From a virus (taxonomy: Duplodnaviria > Heunggongvirae > Uroviricota > Caudoviricetes): a DNA stretch of 5,802 nucleotides. Within the stretch, counting starts at the first letter, position 1. The number at the start of each line of letters is the position of its first letter. Location of the stretch: the IMG/VR virus record IMGVR_UViG_2737471861_000007. The stretch is one strand, 5' to 3'. Of the stretch, positions 1 through 5,802 are shown one piece after another. The notes under the pieces were generated by a model, which had not been told where the DNA came from, searched no databases, and worked only from the letters and a program-made list of their open reading frames with translations. The translations under genes were made by a program, and so were the position numbers.

Positions 1-2766
1 CTGGTCGGCGTGCAGGTGGATTCGGAGCAGTTCGGCAGCCAGCAGGTGAGCCGTAATTATCATCTTCGCGGGCGCATTCTGCAGGTGCCGTCGAATTATA
101 ACCCGCAGACGCGGCAATACAGCGGTATCTGGGACGGAACGTTAAAACCGGCATACAGCAACAACATGGCCTGGTGTCTGTGGGATATGCTGACCCACCC
201 GCGCTACGGCATGGGGAAACGTCTTGGTGCGGCAGATGTGGATAAATGGGCGCTGTATGTCATCGGCCAGAATTGCGACCAGTCGGTGCCGGACGGCTTT
301 GGCGGTACGGAGCCGCGCATCACCTGTAACGCTTACCTGACCACACAACGTAAGGCGTGGGATGTGCTCAGTGATTTCTGCTCGGCGATGCGCTGTATGC
401 CGGTATGGAACGGGCAGACGCTGACGTTCGTGCAGGACCGACCGTCGGATAAGGTGTGGACCTATAACCGCAGTAATGTGGTGATGCCGGATGATGGCGC
501 GCCGTTCCGCTACAGCTTCAGCGCCCTGAAAGACCGCCATAATGCCGTTGAGGTGAACTGGATTGACCCGGATAACGGCTGGGAGACGGCAACAGAGCTT
601 GTGGAGGACTCGCAGGCCATTGCCCGTTACGGTCGTAACGTCACGAAGATGGATGCCTTTGGCTGTACCAGCCGGGGGCAGGCACACCGCGCCGGGCTGT
701 GGCTGATTAAAACGGAGCTGCTGGAAACGCAGACGGTGGACTTCAGCGTGGGTGCCGAAGGGCTTCGCCATGTGCCGGGCGATGTCATTGAAATCTGTGA
801 TGATGACTATGCCGGTATCAGCACCGGCGGGCGCGTGCTGGCGGTAAACAGTCAGACCCGGACGCTGACGCTCGACCGTGAAATCACGCTGCCATCCTCC
901 GGCACCACGCTGATAAGCCTGGTTGACGGAAGTGGTAATCCGGTCAGCGTGGAGGTTCAGTCCGTCACCGACGGACTTAAGGTGAAAGTGAACCGGGTTC
1001 CTGACGGTGTTGCTGAATACAGCGTATGGGGGCTGAAGCTGCCGACGCTGCGCCAGCGACTGTTCCGCTGCGTGAGTATCCGTGAGAACGACGACGGCAC
1101 GTATGCCATCACCGCCGTGCAGCATGTGCCGGAAAAAGAGGCCATCGTGGATAACGGGGCGCACTTTGACGGCGACCAGAGCGGCACGGTGAATGGTGTC
1201 ACGCCGCCAGCGGTGCAGCACCTGACTGCCGAAGTCACCGCAGACAGCGGGGAATATCAGGTACTGGCCCGCTGGGACACGCCGAAGGTGGTGAAGGGGG
1301 TGAGCTTTATGCTTCGCCTGACCGTGGCAGCGGATGACGGCAGTGAGCGGCTGGTCAGCACGGCCCGGACGACGGAAACCACATACCGCTTCAGGCAACT
1401 GGCGCTGGGGCGTTACGCGCTGACGGTCCGGGCGGTAAATGCGTGGGGACAGCAGGGCGATCCGGCATCGGTATCGTTCCGGATTGCCGCCCCGGCAGCG
1501 CCGTCGCGGATTGAGCTGACGCCGGGCTATTTTCAGATAACCGCAACGCCGCATCTTGCGGTTTATGACCCGACGGTACAGTTTGAGTTCTGGTTCTCGG
1601 AAACGCGGATTACCGATATCAGGCAGGTTGAAACCACAGCCCGCTACCTTGGCACGGGGCTGTACTGGATAGCCGCCAGTATCAATATCAAACCGGGTCG
1701 TGATTATTACTTTTATATCCGCAGTGTGAACACCGTTGGCAAATCGGCATTCGTGGAGGCCGTCGGTCGGGCGAGCGATGATGCGGAAGGTTACCTGGAT
1801 TTTTTCAAAGGCAAGATAACCGAATCCCATCTCGGTAAAGAGCTGCTGGAAAAAGTTGATCTGACGGAGGATAACGCCAGCAGACTGGATGAGTTTTCGA
1901 AAGAGTGGAAGGACGCCAGTGATAAGTGGAATGCCATGTGGGCTGTTAAAATTGAGCAGACCAAAGACGGCAAACATTATGTCGCGGGTATTGGCCTCAG
2001 CATGGAGGACACGGAGGAAGGCAAACTGAGTCAGTTTCTGGTTGCCGCTAACCGTATCGCATTTATTGACCCGGCAAACGGGAATGAAACGCCGATGTTT
2101 GTGGCGCAGGGCAATCAGATATTCATGAATGACGTGTTCCTGAAACGCCTGACGGCCCCCACCATTACCAGCGGCGGTAATCCTCCGGCATTTTCCCTGA
2201 CGCCTGATGGCCGGCTGACGGCGAAAAATGCCGATATCAGTGGCAGTGTGAATGCGAACTCAGGGACGCTCAACAATGTCACGATAAATGAAAACTGTAC
2301 GATTAAGGGCATGCTGGAGGCGACCCAGGTCAGAGGTGACTTCGTTAAAGCAGTATCAAAATCATTCCCGAAGAAGGCTGGTACGTGGGGTAACACAGAA
2401 ACACCCAACGGGACGGTTACAGTTACCATCAGCGATGATCATAACTTTGACCGTCAAATCATTATTCCGCCCATTATTTTTAACGGTGTCGCATATGACG
2501 ATCCGGGGAGCGGAAATAACCCCGGAGGCACGCGATACACGGGTTATGGTTTTGAAGTTCGCAAAAACGGCGTATTAATCGCATCCAGAGAAACTAAAGG
2601 GGCCATTCCCGGTAGCTACAGTGCGGTTATTGATATGCCGAGTGGCAGGGGAAGCGTCACTCTGGAGTTTAAGGTTTTCCAGAAAGGCAATCAGGGGGCA
2701 GGTAATATCACCGACTGTACGGTGATTGTGACCAAAAAAGCCGCTTCCGGCATCAGTATTCGTTGA
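1..2766 (+). CDS. J: Tail-tip host-specificity protein J (central tail fibre), C-terminal 918 codons; 5'-partial. The frame is open from base 1, so the GTG at 10 used by the ORF track is not the real start. Stop is TGA at 2764-2766.
   Basis: Single 2.7-kb open frame with no internal stops. The translation ([46 protein letters not shown]...[21 protein letters not shown]...[16 protein letters not shown]...) matches the lambda gpJ sequence as I recall it over most of its length. It lies immediately upstream of lom and stf, as in lambda. The middle of the protein (about nt 1195-1780) contains two fibronectin-III-like segments ([10 protein letters not shown]...[17 protein letters not shown]; FQITATP...[14 protein letters not shown]). 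Confidence 0.92.
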
Positions 2767-2835: not shown

Positions 2836-3435
2836 ATGCGTAAACTTTATGCCGCCATTTTGTCCGCAGCCATCTGTCTGGCCGTATCCGGTGCGCCTGC
2901 ATGGGCGTCTGAACATCAGTCCACGCTGAGCGCGGGCTATCTTCATGCCTCGACGAACGTTTCCGGCAGCGATGATCTGAACGGGATTAACGTGAAATAC
3001 CGTTATGAGTTTACGGACACGCTGGGAATGGTGACGTCATTCAGCTATGCAGGAGACAAGAATCGCCAGCTTACCCGTTACAGCGATACCCGCTGGCATG
3101 AAGATTCCGTGCGTAACCGCTGGTTCAGCGTGATGGCGGGGCCGTCTGTACGCGTGAATGAATGGTTCAGCGCGTATGCGATGGCAGGCGTGGCTTACAG
3201 CCGTGTGTCGACTTTTTCCGGGGATTACCTCCGCGTAACTGACAACAAGGGGAAAACGCACGATGTGCTGACCGGAAGTGATGACGGTCGCCACAGCAAC
3301 ACGTCTCTGGCGTGGGGGGCTGGCGTGCAGTTTAACCCGACCGAATCCGTGGCCGTTGACGTCGCTTATGAAGGCTCCGGCAGCGGTGACTGGCGTACCA
3401 ACAGTTTCATCGTGGGTGTCGGTTATAAATTCTGA
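2836..3435 (+). CDS. lom: Lom outer-membrane protein, Ail/Lom/PagC/OmpX-type beta-barrel family, 199 aa, with a predicted 24-aa signal peptide (2836-2907, cleavage after AWA)
   Basis: Complete ORF with ATG start and an upstream RBS. The N-terminus ([24 protein letters not shown]) is a typical Sec signal peptide. The C-terminus ([26 protein letters not shown]) matches the lambda Lom C-terminus as I recall it and ends in the aromatic residue typical of outer-membrane beta-barrels. Other motifs ([21 protein letters not shown]) fit the Ail/Lom family. The position between J and stf is the classical lambda lom locus. Confidence 0.92.
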
Positions 3436-3499: not shown

Positions 3500-5802
3500 A
3501 TGGCAGTAAAGATTTCAGGTGTACTGAAAGACGGCACAGGAAAACCGGTACAGAACTGCACAATCCAGCTGAAAGCAAAACGTAACAGTACCACTGTGGT
3601 GGTGAACACGCTGGCCTCAGAAAATCCGGATGAAGCCGGGCGTTACAGCATGGACGTTGAGTACGGTCAGTACAGCGTTATTCTGTTGGTGGAGGGATTC
3701 CCGCCGTCACATGCCGGGACCATCACCGTGTATGAAGATTCTCAACCCGGTACGCTGAATGATTTTCTCGGTGCCATGACGGAGGATGATGCCCGTCCGG
3801 AGGCACTGCGCCGTTTTGAACTGATGGTGGAAGAGGTGGCGCGTAACGCGTCCGCGGTGGCACAGAACACAGCAGCCGCGAAGAAGTCAGCCAGCGATGC
3901 CAGCACATCAGCCCGTGAGGCGGCAACCCATGCGACTGATGCTGCAGGCTCAGCACGCGCAGCCAGCACGTCAGCCGGACAGGCCGCGTCGTCGGCTCAG
4001 TCAGCGTCTTCCAGCGCAGGAACGGCATCAGCAAAGGCCACTGAAGCATCAAAAAGTGCTGCCGCTGCAGAGTCCTCAAAAAGCGCGGCGGCTACCAGTG
4101 CCGGTGCAGCGAAAACGTCAGAAACGAATGCGGCAGCGTCACAACAATCAGCCGCCACGTCTGCATCCACCGCGACCTCGAAAGCGTCAGAAGCTGCCAC
4201 GTCAGCCAGGGATGCGGCGGTCTCAAAAGAGGCGGCAAAATCATCAGAAACGAGCGCAGCCTCGAGCGCCGGTAGCGCAGCTTCCTCGGCAACGGCGGCA
4301 GGAAATTCCGCGAAGGCGGCAAAAACGTCCGAGACGAACGCTAAGTCTTCTGAAACGGCAGCGGGACAGAGTGCCTCAGCTGCGGCAGGCTCAAAAACAG
4401 CGGCTGCGTCGTCTGCCAGTGCAGCGTCAACAAGTGCCGGGCAGGCCTCAGCCAGTGCCACCGCCGCCGGAAAATCGGCAGAAAGCGCCGCATCGTCCGC
4501 TTCAACAGCCACAACGAAGGCTGGCGAAGCCACTGAACAGGCCAGTGCAGCAGCGAGGTCTGCTTCCGCAGCGAAGACATCCGAGACGAACGCGAAAGCG
4601 TCGGAAACCAGTGCAGAATCCTCAAAAATGGCAGCCGCATCGTCCGCCAGTTCGGCGGCGTCATCGGCATCATCTGCGTCTGCTTCAAAAGATGAGGCGA
4701 CCAGACAGGCGTCAGCAGCGAGGGGCAGCGCCACGACGGCATCCACGAAGGCGACAGAGGCTGCTGGCAGTGCGGCAGCGGCAGCACAGAGCAAAAGTAC
4801 GGCAGAATCCGCAGCAACGCGCGCTGAGACAGCGGCAAAACGGGCAGAGGATATTGCATCCGCCGTGGCGCTTGAGGATGCGAGCACGACGAAAAAGGGG
4901 ATAGTCCAGCTAAGCAGCGCGACTAACAGCACTTCCGAGTCACAGGCGGCAACGCCAAAAGCCGTTAAGGCCGCGTATGACCTGGCTAACGGGAAATACA
5001 CCGCACAGGATGCAACGACAGCACAGAAAGGGATAGTTCAGCTCAGCAGCGCGACCAACAGCACATCTGAAATGCTGGCGGCAACGCCAAAGTCGGTAAA
5101 GGCAGCCTATGACCTTGCTAACGGGAAATATACTGCTCAGGACGCTACGACAGCACAAAAAGGAATTGTCCAGCTCAGTAGTGCAACCAACAGCGCATCT
5201 GAAACGCTTGCCGCGACACCGAAAGCAGTGAAAGCAGCTAATGATAATGCGAATGGTCGGGTACCTTCTGCCCGTAAGGTGAATGGTAAGGCGCTTTCAG
5301 CGGATATAACACTGACGCCGAAAGATATTGGTACGCTTAACTCAACAACAATGTCCTTCAGCGGTGGTGCTGGTTGGTTCAAATTAGCAACGGTAACCAT
5401 GCCACAGGCGAGTTCTGTTGTTTCAATTACGTTGATTGGTGGCGCGGGATTTAACGTGGGGTCACCTCAACAGGCAGGTATATCTGAACTTGTTTTGCGT
5501 GCAGGTAATGGTAATCCGAAGGGGATTACTGGTGCTTTATGGCAGCGCACATCGACAGGGTTTACAAATTTTGCCTGGGTCAATACATCTGGTGATACTT
5601 ACGATATTTACGTTGCAATCGGAAATTATGCGACTGGTGTAAATATTCAATGGGATTATACCAGTAATGCCAGCGTGACTATTCATACGTCACCAGCATA
5701 TTCTGCTAATAAGCCGGAAGGGTTAACGGACGGTACAGTTTATTCACTCTATACGCCATCAGAGCAGTTTTATCCGCCTGGCGCACCAATCCCGTGGCCA
5801 TC
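3500..5802 (+). CDS. stf: Side tail fibre protein Stf, N-terminal 767 codons; 3'-partial. The frame stays open to the window edge, which is why it is absent from the ORF track.
   Basis: ATG at 3500-3502 preceded by a G-rich SD (GTGGGG). I translated the frame by hand and found it open to 5802. The N-terminus (MAVKISGVLKDGTGKPVQNCTIQLKA...RYSMDVEYGQYSVIL...FPPSHAGTITVYEDSQPGTLNDFL...) matches lambda Stf (orf-401) as I recall it. This is followed by an Ala/Ser/Thr-rich shaft, a 'KGIVQLSSATNSTSE..AATPKAVK' fibre repeat, and the conserved 'FYPPGAPIPWP' motif at the window end. Confidence 0.9.
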   Translation, partial: MAVKISGVLKDGTGKPVQNCTIQLKAKRNSTTVVVNTLASENPDEAGRYSMDVEYGQYSVILLVEGFPPSHAGTITVYEDSQPGTLNDFLGAMTEDDARPEALRRFELMVEEVARNASAVAQNTAAAKKSASDASTSAREAATHATDAAGSARAASTSAGQAASSAQSASSSAGTASAKATEASKSAAAAESSKSAAATSAGAAKTSETNAAASQQSAATSASTATSKASEAATSARDAAVSKEAAKSSETSAASSAGSAASSATAAGNSAKAAKTSETNAKSSETAAGQSASAAAGSKTAAASSASAASTSAGQASASATAAGKSAESAASSASTATTKAGEATEQASAAARSASAAKTSETNAKASETSAESSKMAAASSASSAASSASSASASKDEATRQASAARGSATTASTKATEAAGSAAAAAQSKSTAESAATRAETAAKRAEDIASAVALEDASTTKKGIVQLSSATNSTSESQAATPKAVKAAYDLANGKYTAQDATTAQKGIVQLSSATNSTSEMLAATPKSVKAAYDLANGKYTAQDATTAQKGIVQLSSATNSASETLAATPKAVKAANDNANGRVPSARKVNGKALSADITLTPKDIGTLNSTTMSFSGGAGWFKLATVTMPQASSVVSITLIGGAGFNVGSPQQAGISELVLRAGNGNPKGITGALWQRTSTGFTNFAWVNTSGDTYDIYVAIGNYATGVNIQWDYTSNASVTIHTSPAYSANKPEGLTDGTVYSLYTPSEQFYPPGAPIPWP
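3850..4876 (+). repeat. Low-complexity Ala/Ser/Thr/Lys/Glu-rich shaft region of Stf, built from long imperfect direct repeats that include three copies of a roughly 27-nt core (4106-4132, 4315-4341, 4568-4594) encoding AAKTSETNA
   Basis: Seen in the sequence: gcagcgaaaacgtcagaaacgaatgcg, gcggcaaaaacgtccgagacgaacgct and gcagcgaagacatccgagacgaacgcg, each followed by Ser/Ala-rich stretches (SAGQASAS, ASSASAAS). The approximate period between copies is 210-250 nt. Confidence 0.65.
4877..5245 (+). repeat. Three tandem in-frame copies of a 132-nt (44-aa) phage tail-fibre repeat in Stf, at 4877-5008, 5009-5140 and 5141 to about 5245 (third copy diverges at its end)
   Basis: Translations of the three copies: DASTTKKGIVQLSSATNSTSESQAATPKAVKAAYDLANGKYTAQ; DATTAQKGIVQLSSATNSTSEMLAATPKSVKAAYDLANGKYTAQ; DATTAQKGIVQLSSATNSASETLAATPKAVKAANDNANGR... 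The copies differ mainly at synonymous positions (for example ata gtc cag cta / ata gtt cag ctc / att gtc cag ctc). Confidence 0.85.

Follow-up and report, generated by a model that had tools for sequence, protein, structure and literature searches.

The side tail fiber gene (stf) of a lambdoid E. coli prophage, analyzed here within a window of 5,802 nucleotides (the whole stretch of DNA under study), encodes a tandem array of three Phage_fiber_2 units (Pfam PF03406) that sits between a long coiled-coil rod and the distal, receptor-proximal modules of the fiber. We propose, with a probability of roughly 0.8, that this array is a modular, trimeric shaft element between rod and distal module that adds length and offers a conserved junction for module shuffling. 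The PF03406 motif is a long-curated Pfam repeat, and the array is already known in kind. What is described here is its structure in one allele, its frequency in E. coli, and its variation among relatives.

The stf gene is of the lambda type in both its N-terminus and its gene neighborhood. Its translation starts MAVKISGVLKDG, and PF08400 (Pfam phage_tail_N, the prophage tail fiber N-terminal domain), which forms the collar on the tail and is typical of lambda-type Stf, covers aa 1-134 (E = 6e-72). The genes follow the lambda-type order J-lom-stf-tfa, with the tail fiber assembly gene tfa located outside the window and seen in NZ_CP027342 (locus L001). The stf region is 99.1% identical to that genome, where the homologue is a 971-aa "prophage tail fiber N-terminal domain-containing protein" with tfa next to it. 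Feature coordinates are listed in Table 1.

Table 1. Coordinates of genes, fiber parts and repeat units in the window.
Feature	Coordinates	Strand	Description
J	10..2766		Window gene
lom	2836..3435		Between J and stf
stf, side tail fiber gene	3500..5802	+	5'-complete, ATG at 3500; continues beyond the window end
Ala/Ser-rich low-complexity rod	3900..4876	+	Predicted trimeric coiled coil
Repeat unit 1 (c1), DASTTKKGIVQLSSATNSTSESQAATPKAVKAAYDLANGKYTAQ	4877..5008	+	Head DASTTKK; full 44 aa
Repeat unit 2 (c2), DATTAQKGIVQLSSATNSTSEMLAATPKSVKAAYDLANGKYTAQ	5009..5140	+	Head DATTAQK; full 44 aa; contains SEMLAATPKSVK
Repeat unit 3 (c3), DATTAQKGIVQLSSATNSASETLAATPKAVKAANDNANGRVPSA	5141..5272	+	First 33 codons (to ~5239) are repeat
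Distal module, begins RKVNGKALSADITLTPKDIG	5273..5779	+	Matches PHROG tail fiber families only
GAPIPWP junction	5780..5802	+	Onset of the conserved C-terminal part; window ends here

The rod precedes the array. Residues 102-393 of lambda Stf are a coiled coil (PMC12617516), and the PCoil region, which is homologous to the rod, was determined to be a coiled coil by CD and SEC-MALLS (PMC3368898). The rod in the window is 105 aa (15 heptads) longer than that of Ur-lambda, and the first repeat unit begins at aa 460, versus aa 355 in lambda. Beyond the array, the distal module yielded no Pfam, NCBIfam or PDB sequence match and belongs to no curated family; its PHROG matches are phrog_3299, phrog_21552 and phrog_6722 (E = 1e-66 to 1e-90). 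The GAPIPWP motif that follows also occurs in lambda Stf (aa 533-539). In the full-length homologue, the C-terminal part comprises a Collar domain (PF07484, aa 761-808) and a His-rich, gp37-like tip; Phage_fiber (PF03335) was also matched, and an NCBIfam search of this protein returned nothing. Two antisense ORFs (4940..5158 and 5137..5400) were rejected, being without support and lying within the GC-rich Ala/Ser-codon composition of stf.

The units are in-frame and each spans 132 nt (44 aa). Unit 3 departs from the repeat at ~5239, giving an array of ~2.75 units; the remainder of that unit after codon 33, AANDNANGRVPSA, forms the junction with the distal module. Several searches recover the same periodicity. 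Tandem Repeats Finder reports a period of 132 nt at 4893-5205 (2.4 copies, 81% matches, score 409), and a repeat search places three copies spaced by 132 nt at 4875-5006, 5007-5138 and 5139-5270. Identity at a lag of 132 nt climbs to 83% at the array, compared with a mean of 32% (sd 5%, max 43%) elsewhere in stf, which excludes chance. The initial annotation had named PF03406 as the repeat model and described three tandem copies with a 132-nt period at 4877-5245, an extent that agrees with ~2.75 units; the profile indeed matches window Stf in three stretches (178.2 bits, E = 2e-53; gathering score 22 bits), the best of them at aa 463-503 over profile positions 1-41 of 42. The 44-aa period corresponds to the ~40-residue repeat of phage tail fiber proteins that this family describes, and the repeat region matches 27 PHROG tail fiber families.

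Comparison with characterized fibers places the array within a widespread motif family. The closest reference is the OmpC-binding Stf of Ur-lambda, which shares with the window the PF08400 collar domain, the GAPIPWP junction, the J-lom-stf-tfa order, an Ala/Ser coiled-coil rod (80% identity over aa 1-352), and a Phage_fiber_2 unit at the rod end. As the initial annotation had stated, lambda Stf carries a single unit (aa 355-398; PF03406 once) whereas the window has three, and the module that follows it (SPALTGTP...) is unrelated to the RKVNGK... module of the window. This single unit ends the proximal rod (102-393) and adjoins the hinge (394-422) (PMC12617516). At the other extreme, WP_106914331 (NZ_CP027342) and the Stf of an O157:H7 prophage have the same three units with 98-99% DNA identity over the array and distal module; these alleles differ from the window by point differences only (e.g., SESL versus the window's SESQ in unit 1).

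The motif extends to other fiber genes. P2-family gpH contains tandem 44-aa units with the period DATTA[QR]KG...AAYDLANGKYTAQ, as in the window, and their number varies from two in P2 to three in phage Chuche and four in P2 isolate OU784750; PF03406 likewise finds two stretches in P2 gpH and four in that of OU784750. The Chuche fiber also has a AANDNANGRVPS junction like that of the window, and its DNA is 82-86% identical at units 2 and 3. These myovirus fibers are nevertheless unlike Stf in having an N-terminal baseplate-attachment domain (PF12571) and no coiled-coil rod. The P1-like S region carries at least 10 units of the same motif with periods of 44 and 56 aa, the longer period arising from a 12-aa insertion in some units, and Mu S carries one (residues 111-154, placed by sequence on PDB 5yvq, 8ju3 and 9ki1). 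Unlike stf, the P1-like and Mu S genes are encoded beside invertible segments (Cin or Gin).

The units of the window are old. They are 67-78% identical to one another at the DNA level (c1-c2 78%), and 22 of the 29 nucleotide differences between c1 and c2 fall at third codon positions, with six amino-acid changes. By the NG86 method, c1-c2 gives dN = 0.08, dS = 1.7 and dN/dS = 0.05, while dS is saturated and not computable for c1-c3 and c2-c3. This count of synonymous and nonsynonymous differences bears out the earlier suggestion of old copies under purifying selection, as opposed to a recent slip or an assembly artefact. Efficient RecA recombination is usually quoted as needing ~25 nt of identity. 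The longest identical runs in the window array are 15 nt (c1-c2) and 11 nt (c2-c3), below that length, and the allele should thus be fairly stable. We therefore regard it as an old, stabilized three-unit version under purifying selection.

That the array results from a recent slippage or unequal-crossover duplication, or from an expansion during assembly, is extremely improbable. Such duplications do occur in this gene family, where units reach 98% identity in one four-unit fiber (L021) and 90-92% in three others (L007, L018 and L036), and many repeat proteins in the databases are partial and derive from very short contigs. In the window, a recent event is opposed by the saturation of dS, by identical runs no longer than 15 nt, and by units 2 and 3 having counterparts of 99-100% identity in independent genomes. 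The allele is also matched in a single piece at full length in more than 1,000 complete genomes, which bears out the dismissal of an assembly artefact by the initial annotation; with a difference between units at ~22% of positions, mis-assembly of these matches is unlikely. Taken together, unit divergence, independently recovered identical units and complete-genome matches refute both explanations for the window.

The same searches establish how common the allele is. Of 5,426 complete E. coli genomes, at a coverage of 80% or more, 1,160 match window positions 4600-5802 and 1,297 match a 471-nt probe made of the array and its flanks. In an evenly spaced sample, 14 of 50 rows had single-piece matches to the whole probe (94-99% identity, spans of 462-471 nt), and O157:H7 and O55:H7 are among such matches. 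The three-unit allele thus occurs in roughly a fifth of the complete E. coli genomes (~1,100-1,300 of 5,426) and is ordinary and common. The rarity that the initial annotation implied for the triplication is not supported; close relatives carry three copies as well.

Copy number was counted on IMG/VR loci, in 66 complete Stf proteins that share the N-terminus of the window Stf; a homologous-protein search gave almost exclusively short partial proteins, which are unsuitable for this purpose. The stf locus varies in unit number: two proteins have no unit, 25 have one, 24 have two, 14 have three, and one has four. The distal module of the window stands behind one (7 loci), two (2), three (13) or four (1) units, and other distal modules stand behind one or two. 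In the alleles with 90-92% identical units (L007, L018 and L036; c1-c2), identical runs extend up to 84 nt; in the four-unit allele the 98% identity is between c2 and c3; and across alleles with 90-98% identical units the runs are 53-84 nt. In some relatives the middle units are chimeric, joining a head like that of c2 to a body like that of c1. High identity, long runs and chimeric units together point to recent unequal crossing-over, duplication or gene conversion in these relatives. The near-identical units and long identical runs of a hypervariable or contingency repeat are seen only in L007, L018, L021 and L036, and not in the window. Accordingly, the earlier view that the array is not hypervariable through RecA-mediated exchange stands for the window allele but fails for the locus. 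Phage Red recombines diverged stf sequences (PMC3945230), and lambda-P2 Stf chimeras are functional, with module swaps tolerated (PMC11338833).

This variation raises the question of whether unit number matters to the phage. If the units were interchangeable spacers, with only reading frame and trimer register kept, their number could drift neutrally by recombination. The presence of one to four units with the same proximal and distal parts, and the dispensability of Stf for lambda plaque formation (PMC12617516), would fit such drift; we consider it somewhat unlikely given the strong purifying selection on each unit (dN/dS ~0.05), the retention of the three-unit form at 94-99% identity over diverse E. 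coli lineages, and the uneven distribution of copy number over distal modules. Three units occur in 13 of 23 knob-type fibers, two in all 18 QNGADIPG-type fibers, and one in 19 of 22 StfR-type fibers. The skew suggests linkage or co-adaptation, and shared ancestry could also explain it. A further reading is improbable, in which selection sets the number of units at the Stf knee for each distal module, so that the length fits the reach of that receptor-binding module to O-antigen or capsule thickness, and in which the saturated synonymous divergence is itself selected to guard a favored copy number from recombinational loss; the skew is compatible with this reading, and shared ancestry explains it equally well.

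The kinship of individual units bears on where the array came from. Stf alleles with one, two or four units have a first unit that shares 96-97% DNA identity with unit 1 of the window. H1 and L081 carry a second unit 99-100% identical to unit 2 here, and the last unit of these two and of L033 matches unit 3 at 100%. Units 2 and 3 are also nearer to the corresponding units of a P2-like phage fiber (82-86%) than to their own neighbors (67-78%). Judged from these identities, expansion in place is not the only possible history. Alternatively, homologous recombination at the conserved motif may have brought in all or part of the array from a different fiber gene, for example a P2-like gpH, in which case the divergence between units would predate their arrival in Stf. 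We place this possibility only slightly below even odds. In its favor, c2 has 86% identity with the second Chuche unit against only 78% with its own c1, the third Chuche unit is 82% identical to c3 (86% when only the first 99 nt are compared), and the Chuche fiber has the same three-unit layout and junction; moreover, one megablast match (H46, 83.6% identity) covers window positions 4904-5286, and the best tblastn protein matches to c2 (90.9%) lie in P2-like phages. Transfer in either direction would fit these identities, and the sharing of unit 1 with other Stf alleles indicates that the head of the array, if nothing more, is native to Stf. Import is compatible with the shaft-element explanation and would refine its history rather than replace it.

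The array, its family, purifying selection, population frequency, copy-number polymorphism and recombinant units in relatives are observed; we infer the fold of the unit, the length that each copy would add, and any effect on adsorption. In the trimer, each 44-aa unit would most likely form a small intertwined alpha/beta shaft domain, with the conserved Gly leading into a beta-strand and a helix capped by [ST]-Pro joining a central three-helix bundle. Hints of this fold come from the repeat of T4 gp34 and gp12, tandem units in a trimeric fiber shaft as proposed here for Stf, in which the beta-strand begins at a conserved Gly and the helix of the central three-helix bundle is capped by Ser/Thr-Pro (PMC5537660). 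Stf units resemble by eye the hallmarks of this "mixed alpha-beta fibrous domain" (G-h-h-x-h-[AS]-[ST] and [ST]-P-K; PMC5537660), but they differ in loop length and have no significant sequence match to it. A profile search of T4 gp34 and gp37 gave nothing above threshold, and PF03406 matched neither protein; the Stf-unit profile made only two alignments to the 1,289-aa gp34, both sub-threshold (~-1 bit), in register, and inside structural repeats (780-812 and 823-868) of the region 744-877.

PDB sequence searches with the region and with a 10-sequence unit profile retrieved only Mu fiber S, with T4 gp34 and gp12 absent. No experimental structure of the repeat was identified; the Mu S papers describe the resolved N- and C-terminal parts and are silent on the order of the motif residues. 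An AF2 monomer of window positions 4850-5371 (61-sequence alignment) was unusable (pLDDT 40.5, pTM 0.20), the only consistent element being a PKAVKAAYDLA helix in each unit. The unit might also be simply helical, since the Ur-lambda study assigns most of it to the "proximal coiled-coil" at 102-393 (PMC12617516).

Under the shaft-element explanation, each extra unit would add a fixed increment of shaft length immediately ahead of the fiber knee, and putative tuning of fiber length by the array is plausible. Conserved as it is in lambda Stf, P2 gpH, P1 S and Mu S, the motif probably also acts as a homology patch for distal-module exchange and for unit gain or loss.

Finally, the three-unit allele has little importance as a discovery, since more than 1,000 public E. 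coli genomes already contain it in annotated form. Tail fiber repeats of this kind account for frequent short-read assembly breaks inside these genes. For the design of chimeric fibers on lambda-based delivery particles, the units offer a useful natural boundary between Stf modules, and the one-to-four-unit polymorphism offers a ready series for relating shaft length to adsorption.

The three-unit array that the initial annotation described in stf, the side tail fibre gene, is confirmed; the positions, the period, the number of copies and the suggested family (Phage_fiber_2, PF03406) were all right. Tandem Repeats Finder returned a 132-nt period (score 409), a second repeat search (find_repeats) recovered three copies at the same spacing, and Pfam placed three PF03406 matches on the stf product (178 bits). 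When stf is compared with itself at a lag of 132 nt, identity rises to a maximum of 83% in the array versus 32 ± 5% (maximum 43%) in the rest of the gene. The final 11 residues of the third unit (c3) are already the junction to the next module. Likewise, the statement that lambda Stf carries a single unit was accurate, as Pfam shows one stretch (aa 358-396); K-12 StfR has one unit as well.

Features of the window discussed in the text
Feature	Position	Remark
gpJ (central fibre)	10..2766	C-terminal 918 aa
gpJ C-terminus	2290-2766	compared with lambda J
lom	2836..3435	between gpJ and stf
stf	ATG 3500	3' end beyond window end
stf rod	3900-4876	Ala/Ser-rich coiled coil
132-nt period	4893-5205	Tandem Repeats Finder
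Unit c1	4877-5008	in stf frame; DASTTKKGIVQLSSATNSTSESQAATPKAVKAAYDLANGKYTAQ
Unit c2	5009-5140	in stf frame; DATTAQKGIVQLSSATNSTSEMLAATPKSVKAAYDLANGKYTAQ
Unit c3	5141-5272	in stf frame; DATTAQKGIVQLSSATNSASETLAATPKAVKAANDNANGRVPSA
Distal module	5273-5779	follows the repeats
Antisense ORF	142..1977 (-)	611 aa, overlaps J
Antisense ORF	3997..5001 (-)	334 aa, overlaps stf

The stf product begins MAVKISGVLKDG, has a Pfam phage_tail_N match at aa 1-134 (E = 6e-72) and is 80% identical over aa 1-352 to Stf of Ur-lambda. The closest complete genome, E. coli NZ_CP027342, is 99.1% identical to window 4600-5802; its stf encodes 971 aa, annotated "prophage tail fiber N-terminal domain-containing protein", with a gene for tail fibre assembly next downstream. 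Elsewhere in the window, gpJ is ~95% identical to lambda J except over the last ~150 aa, where similarity is weak and gapped; the receptor-binding tip of the central fibre therefore differs from the LamB-binding tip of lambda. Most likely, the two antisense ORFs are not genes but artefacts of composition in GC-rich runs of Ala/Ser codons.

The units of the window are well diverged. DNA identity is 78% for c1-c2 (over 132 nt), 78% for c2-c3 and 67% for c1-c3 (both over the shared 99 nt), with longest identical runs of 15, 11 and 8 nt, respectively. Differences fall mostly at third codon positions (22/29 for c1-c2); by the Nei-Gojobori method, c1-c2 has dN = 0.08, dS = 1.7 and dN/dS = 0.05, and dS is saturated in pairs involving c3. 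Together, the third-position bias, low dN/dS and saturated dS indicate that this allele consists of old units under purifying selection, as had been proposed from the synonymous differences. The same divergence (67-78% identity, dS high to saturated) excludes a recent slippage event and an assembly expansion as sources of the window array, and bears out the initial annotation on both.

That the triplication is unusual, as implied at the outset, is not supported. Among the 5,426 complete E. coli genomes, 1,160 cover at least 80% of a probe of 1,203 nt (window 4600-5802), and 1,297 cover at least 80% of a 471-nt probe comprising only the array and its unique flanks, with 1,176 records at ≥95% identity for the latter. 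Of 50 rows sampled at even intervals from the 471-nt ranking, 14 matched the whole probe in a single piece (94-99% identity, spans of 462-471 nt); one row, H130, spans 339 nt and represents a two-unit variant; whole-probe single-piece matches include strains of O157:H7 and O55:H7. Based on this coverage and these single-piece matches, roughly one fifth of complete E. coli genomes carry the three-unit array. Close relatives with three tandem copies, which the initial annotation named as evidence against its view, do exist, although lambda itself has one unit. The window array is a common allele, and both the repeat and the protein it belongs to are already known.

For a survey of copy number, an HMM of the three window units was used to count units in 80 IMG/VR loci encoding the same Stf N-terminus. 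Of the 66 proteins that are complete, two have no unit, 25 have one, 24 have two, 14 have three and one has four; the first unit begins at aa 460 in 67 of 69 tabulated loci. Since copy number varies before a given distal module and the first-unit start is nearly constant, units are gained and lost independently of both flanks.

Number of units preceding each distal module type among Stf relatives
Distal module	1 unit	2 units	3 units	4 units
RKVNGK... (window type)	7	2	13	1
QNGADIPDK... (StfR-like)	19	3	none	none
SPALTGTP... (lambda-like)	2	2	none	none
QNGADIPGKDTF...	none	18	none	none

Two observations concern detection of the repeat. PF03406 is absent from the Pfam hmmscan list for K-12 stfR (L003:3050-6409), though the window-unit HMM finds a canonical unit at aa 460-503; the omission may be a filter effect in a low-complexity protein. 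In addition, of 120 repeat-containing proteins retrieved from the database, almost all are "partial" tail fibre fragments on contigs of 300-900 nt, suggesting that assemblies from short reads often break within or close to Phage_fiber_2 arrays.

Three-unit Stf occurs as two haplotypes. In type A (the window, H1, L014, L041 and L081), c1-c2 identity is 77-80% and identical runs reach at most 17 nt; in type B (L007, L018 and L036), identity is 90-92% and runs extend up to 84 nt. The second and third units of the four-unit locus, L021, are 98% identical. Position-by-position comparison shows that the middle units of type B, and those of L021, are chimeric, with a c2-like head (~first 30 nt) and a c1-like body. 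These chimeric middle units and near-identical units are the footprint of recent unequal crossing-over or gene conversion between units, and recombination is thus at work in the stf array locus taken as a whole; phage Red-type recombinases recombine diverged stf sequences (PMC3945230). The expectation of a non-variable locus is not supported, given the range of 0-4 units and the chimeras among relatives, but the window allele itself should be comparatively stable given its short identical runs.

Other fibre families share the array. A tblastn search with one unit matched 421 phage records, many with several matches each. Relative to the three units of the window, P2 gpH has two, P2 isolate OU784750 has four, and the S region of a P1-like phage has at least 10 with periods of 44 and 56 aa; the P2-like phage Chuche has three and shares the AANDNANGRVPS junction. 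At the DNA level, window c2 is closer to Chuche unit 2 (86% identity) than to its own c1 (only 78%), and window c3 is closer to Chuche unit 3 (82%, or 86% over the first 99 nt) than to its neighbours (67-78%). Units at corresponding positions in different fibre genes are therefore more alike than units within the array. The multi-unit array is either older than the split of these fibre genes or was transferred as a block from one to another. In PHROG, 27 tail fibre families match the repeat region, in keeping with the established view of tail fibre genes as mosaics (also cited in PMC3945230). In the P1-like phage vB_EcoM-813R1 (L085, 4365-7883), the S region is annotated as four successive "tail protein (Fragment)" CDSs, and its alternating 44- and 56-aa units are broken by frame changes that could be sequencing or assembly errors in repeats or real frameshifts.

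Cryo-ET and AlphaFold3 divide Ur-lambda Stf into a collar domain (1-91), linker (92-101), proximal coiled coil (102-393), hinge (394-422) and distal part (PMC12617516). The single lambda unit (aa 355-398) lies at the end of the proximal rod, immediately before the hinge; relative to Ur-lambda, the window has two more units (88 aa) that extend the proximal arm. Its rod extends that arm too, being longer by 105 aa, exactly 15 heptads; the first unit starts at aa 460 rather than aa 355. This is a second, independent difference in shaft length, and it matches the multiples-of-seven length variation of the homologous PCoil region (PMC3368898).

A structurally solved tandem "mixed alpha-beta fibrous domain" occurs in T4 gp34 and gp12, and the unit shares with it a conserved Gly starting a beta-strand and a Ser/Thr-Pro capping the central helix of a three-helix bundle (PMC5537660). 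Profile searches gave no statistically significant similarity to gp34, with only two sub-threshold alignments, both inside those repeats, and PF03406 had no match on gp34. A PDB sequence search with the motif returned only Mu fibre S entries, whose published models are silent on whether the segment is resolved, and an AF2 monomer model was too poor for use. The distal module had no Pfam, NCBIfam or PDB sequence match; it matches PHROG tail fibre families only, and NCBI gives some partial homologues the name "pyocin knob domain-containing protein".

Distal modules of relatives diverge directly after ...ATPKAVK, and Stf chimeras engineered between lambda and P2 retain function (PMC11338833). On the reading with the best support, each unit would be a small module of the trimeric shaft, adding a fixed length increment before the knee; copy number might also tune reach or adsorption. 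On the same reading, the conserved sequence of the unit would double as the junction for distal-module swaps.
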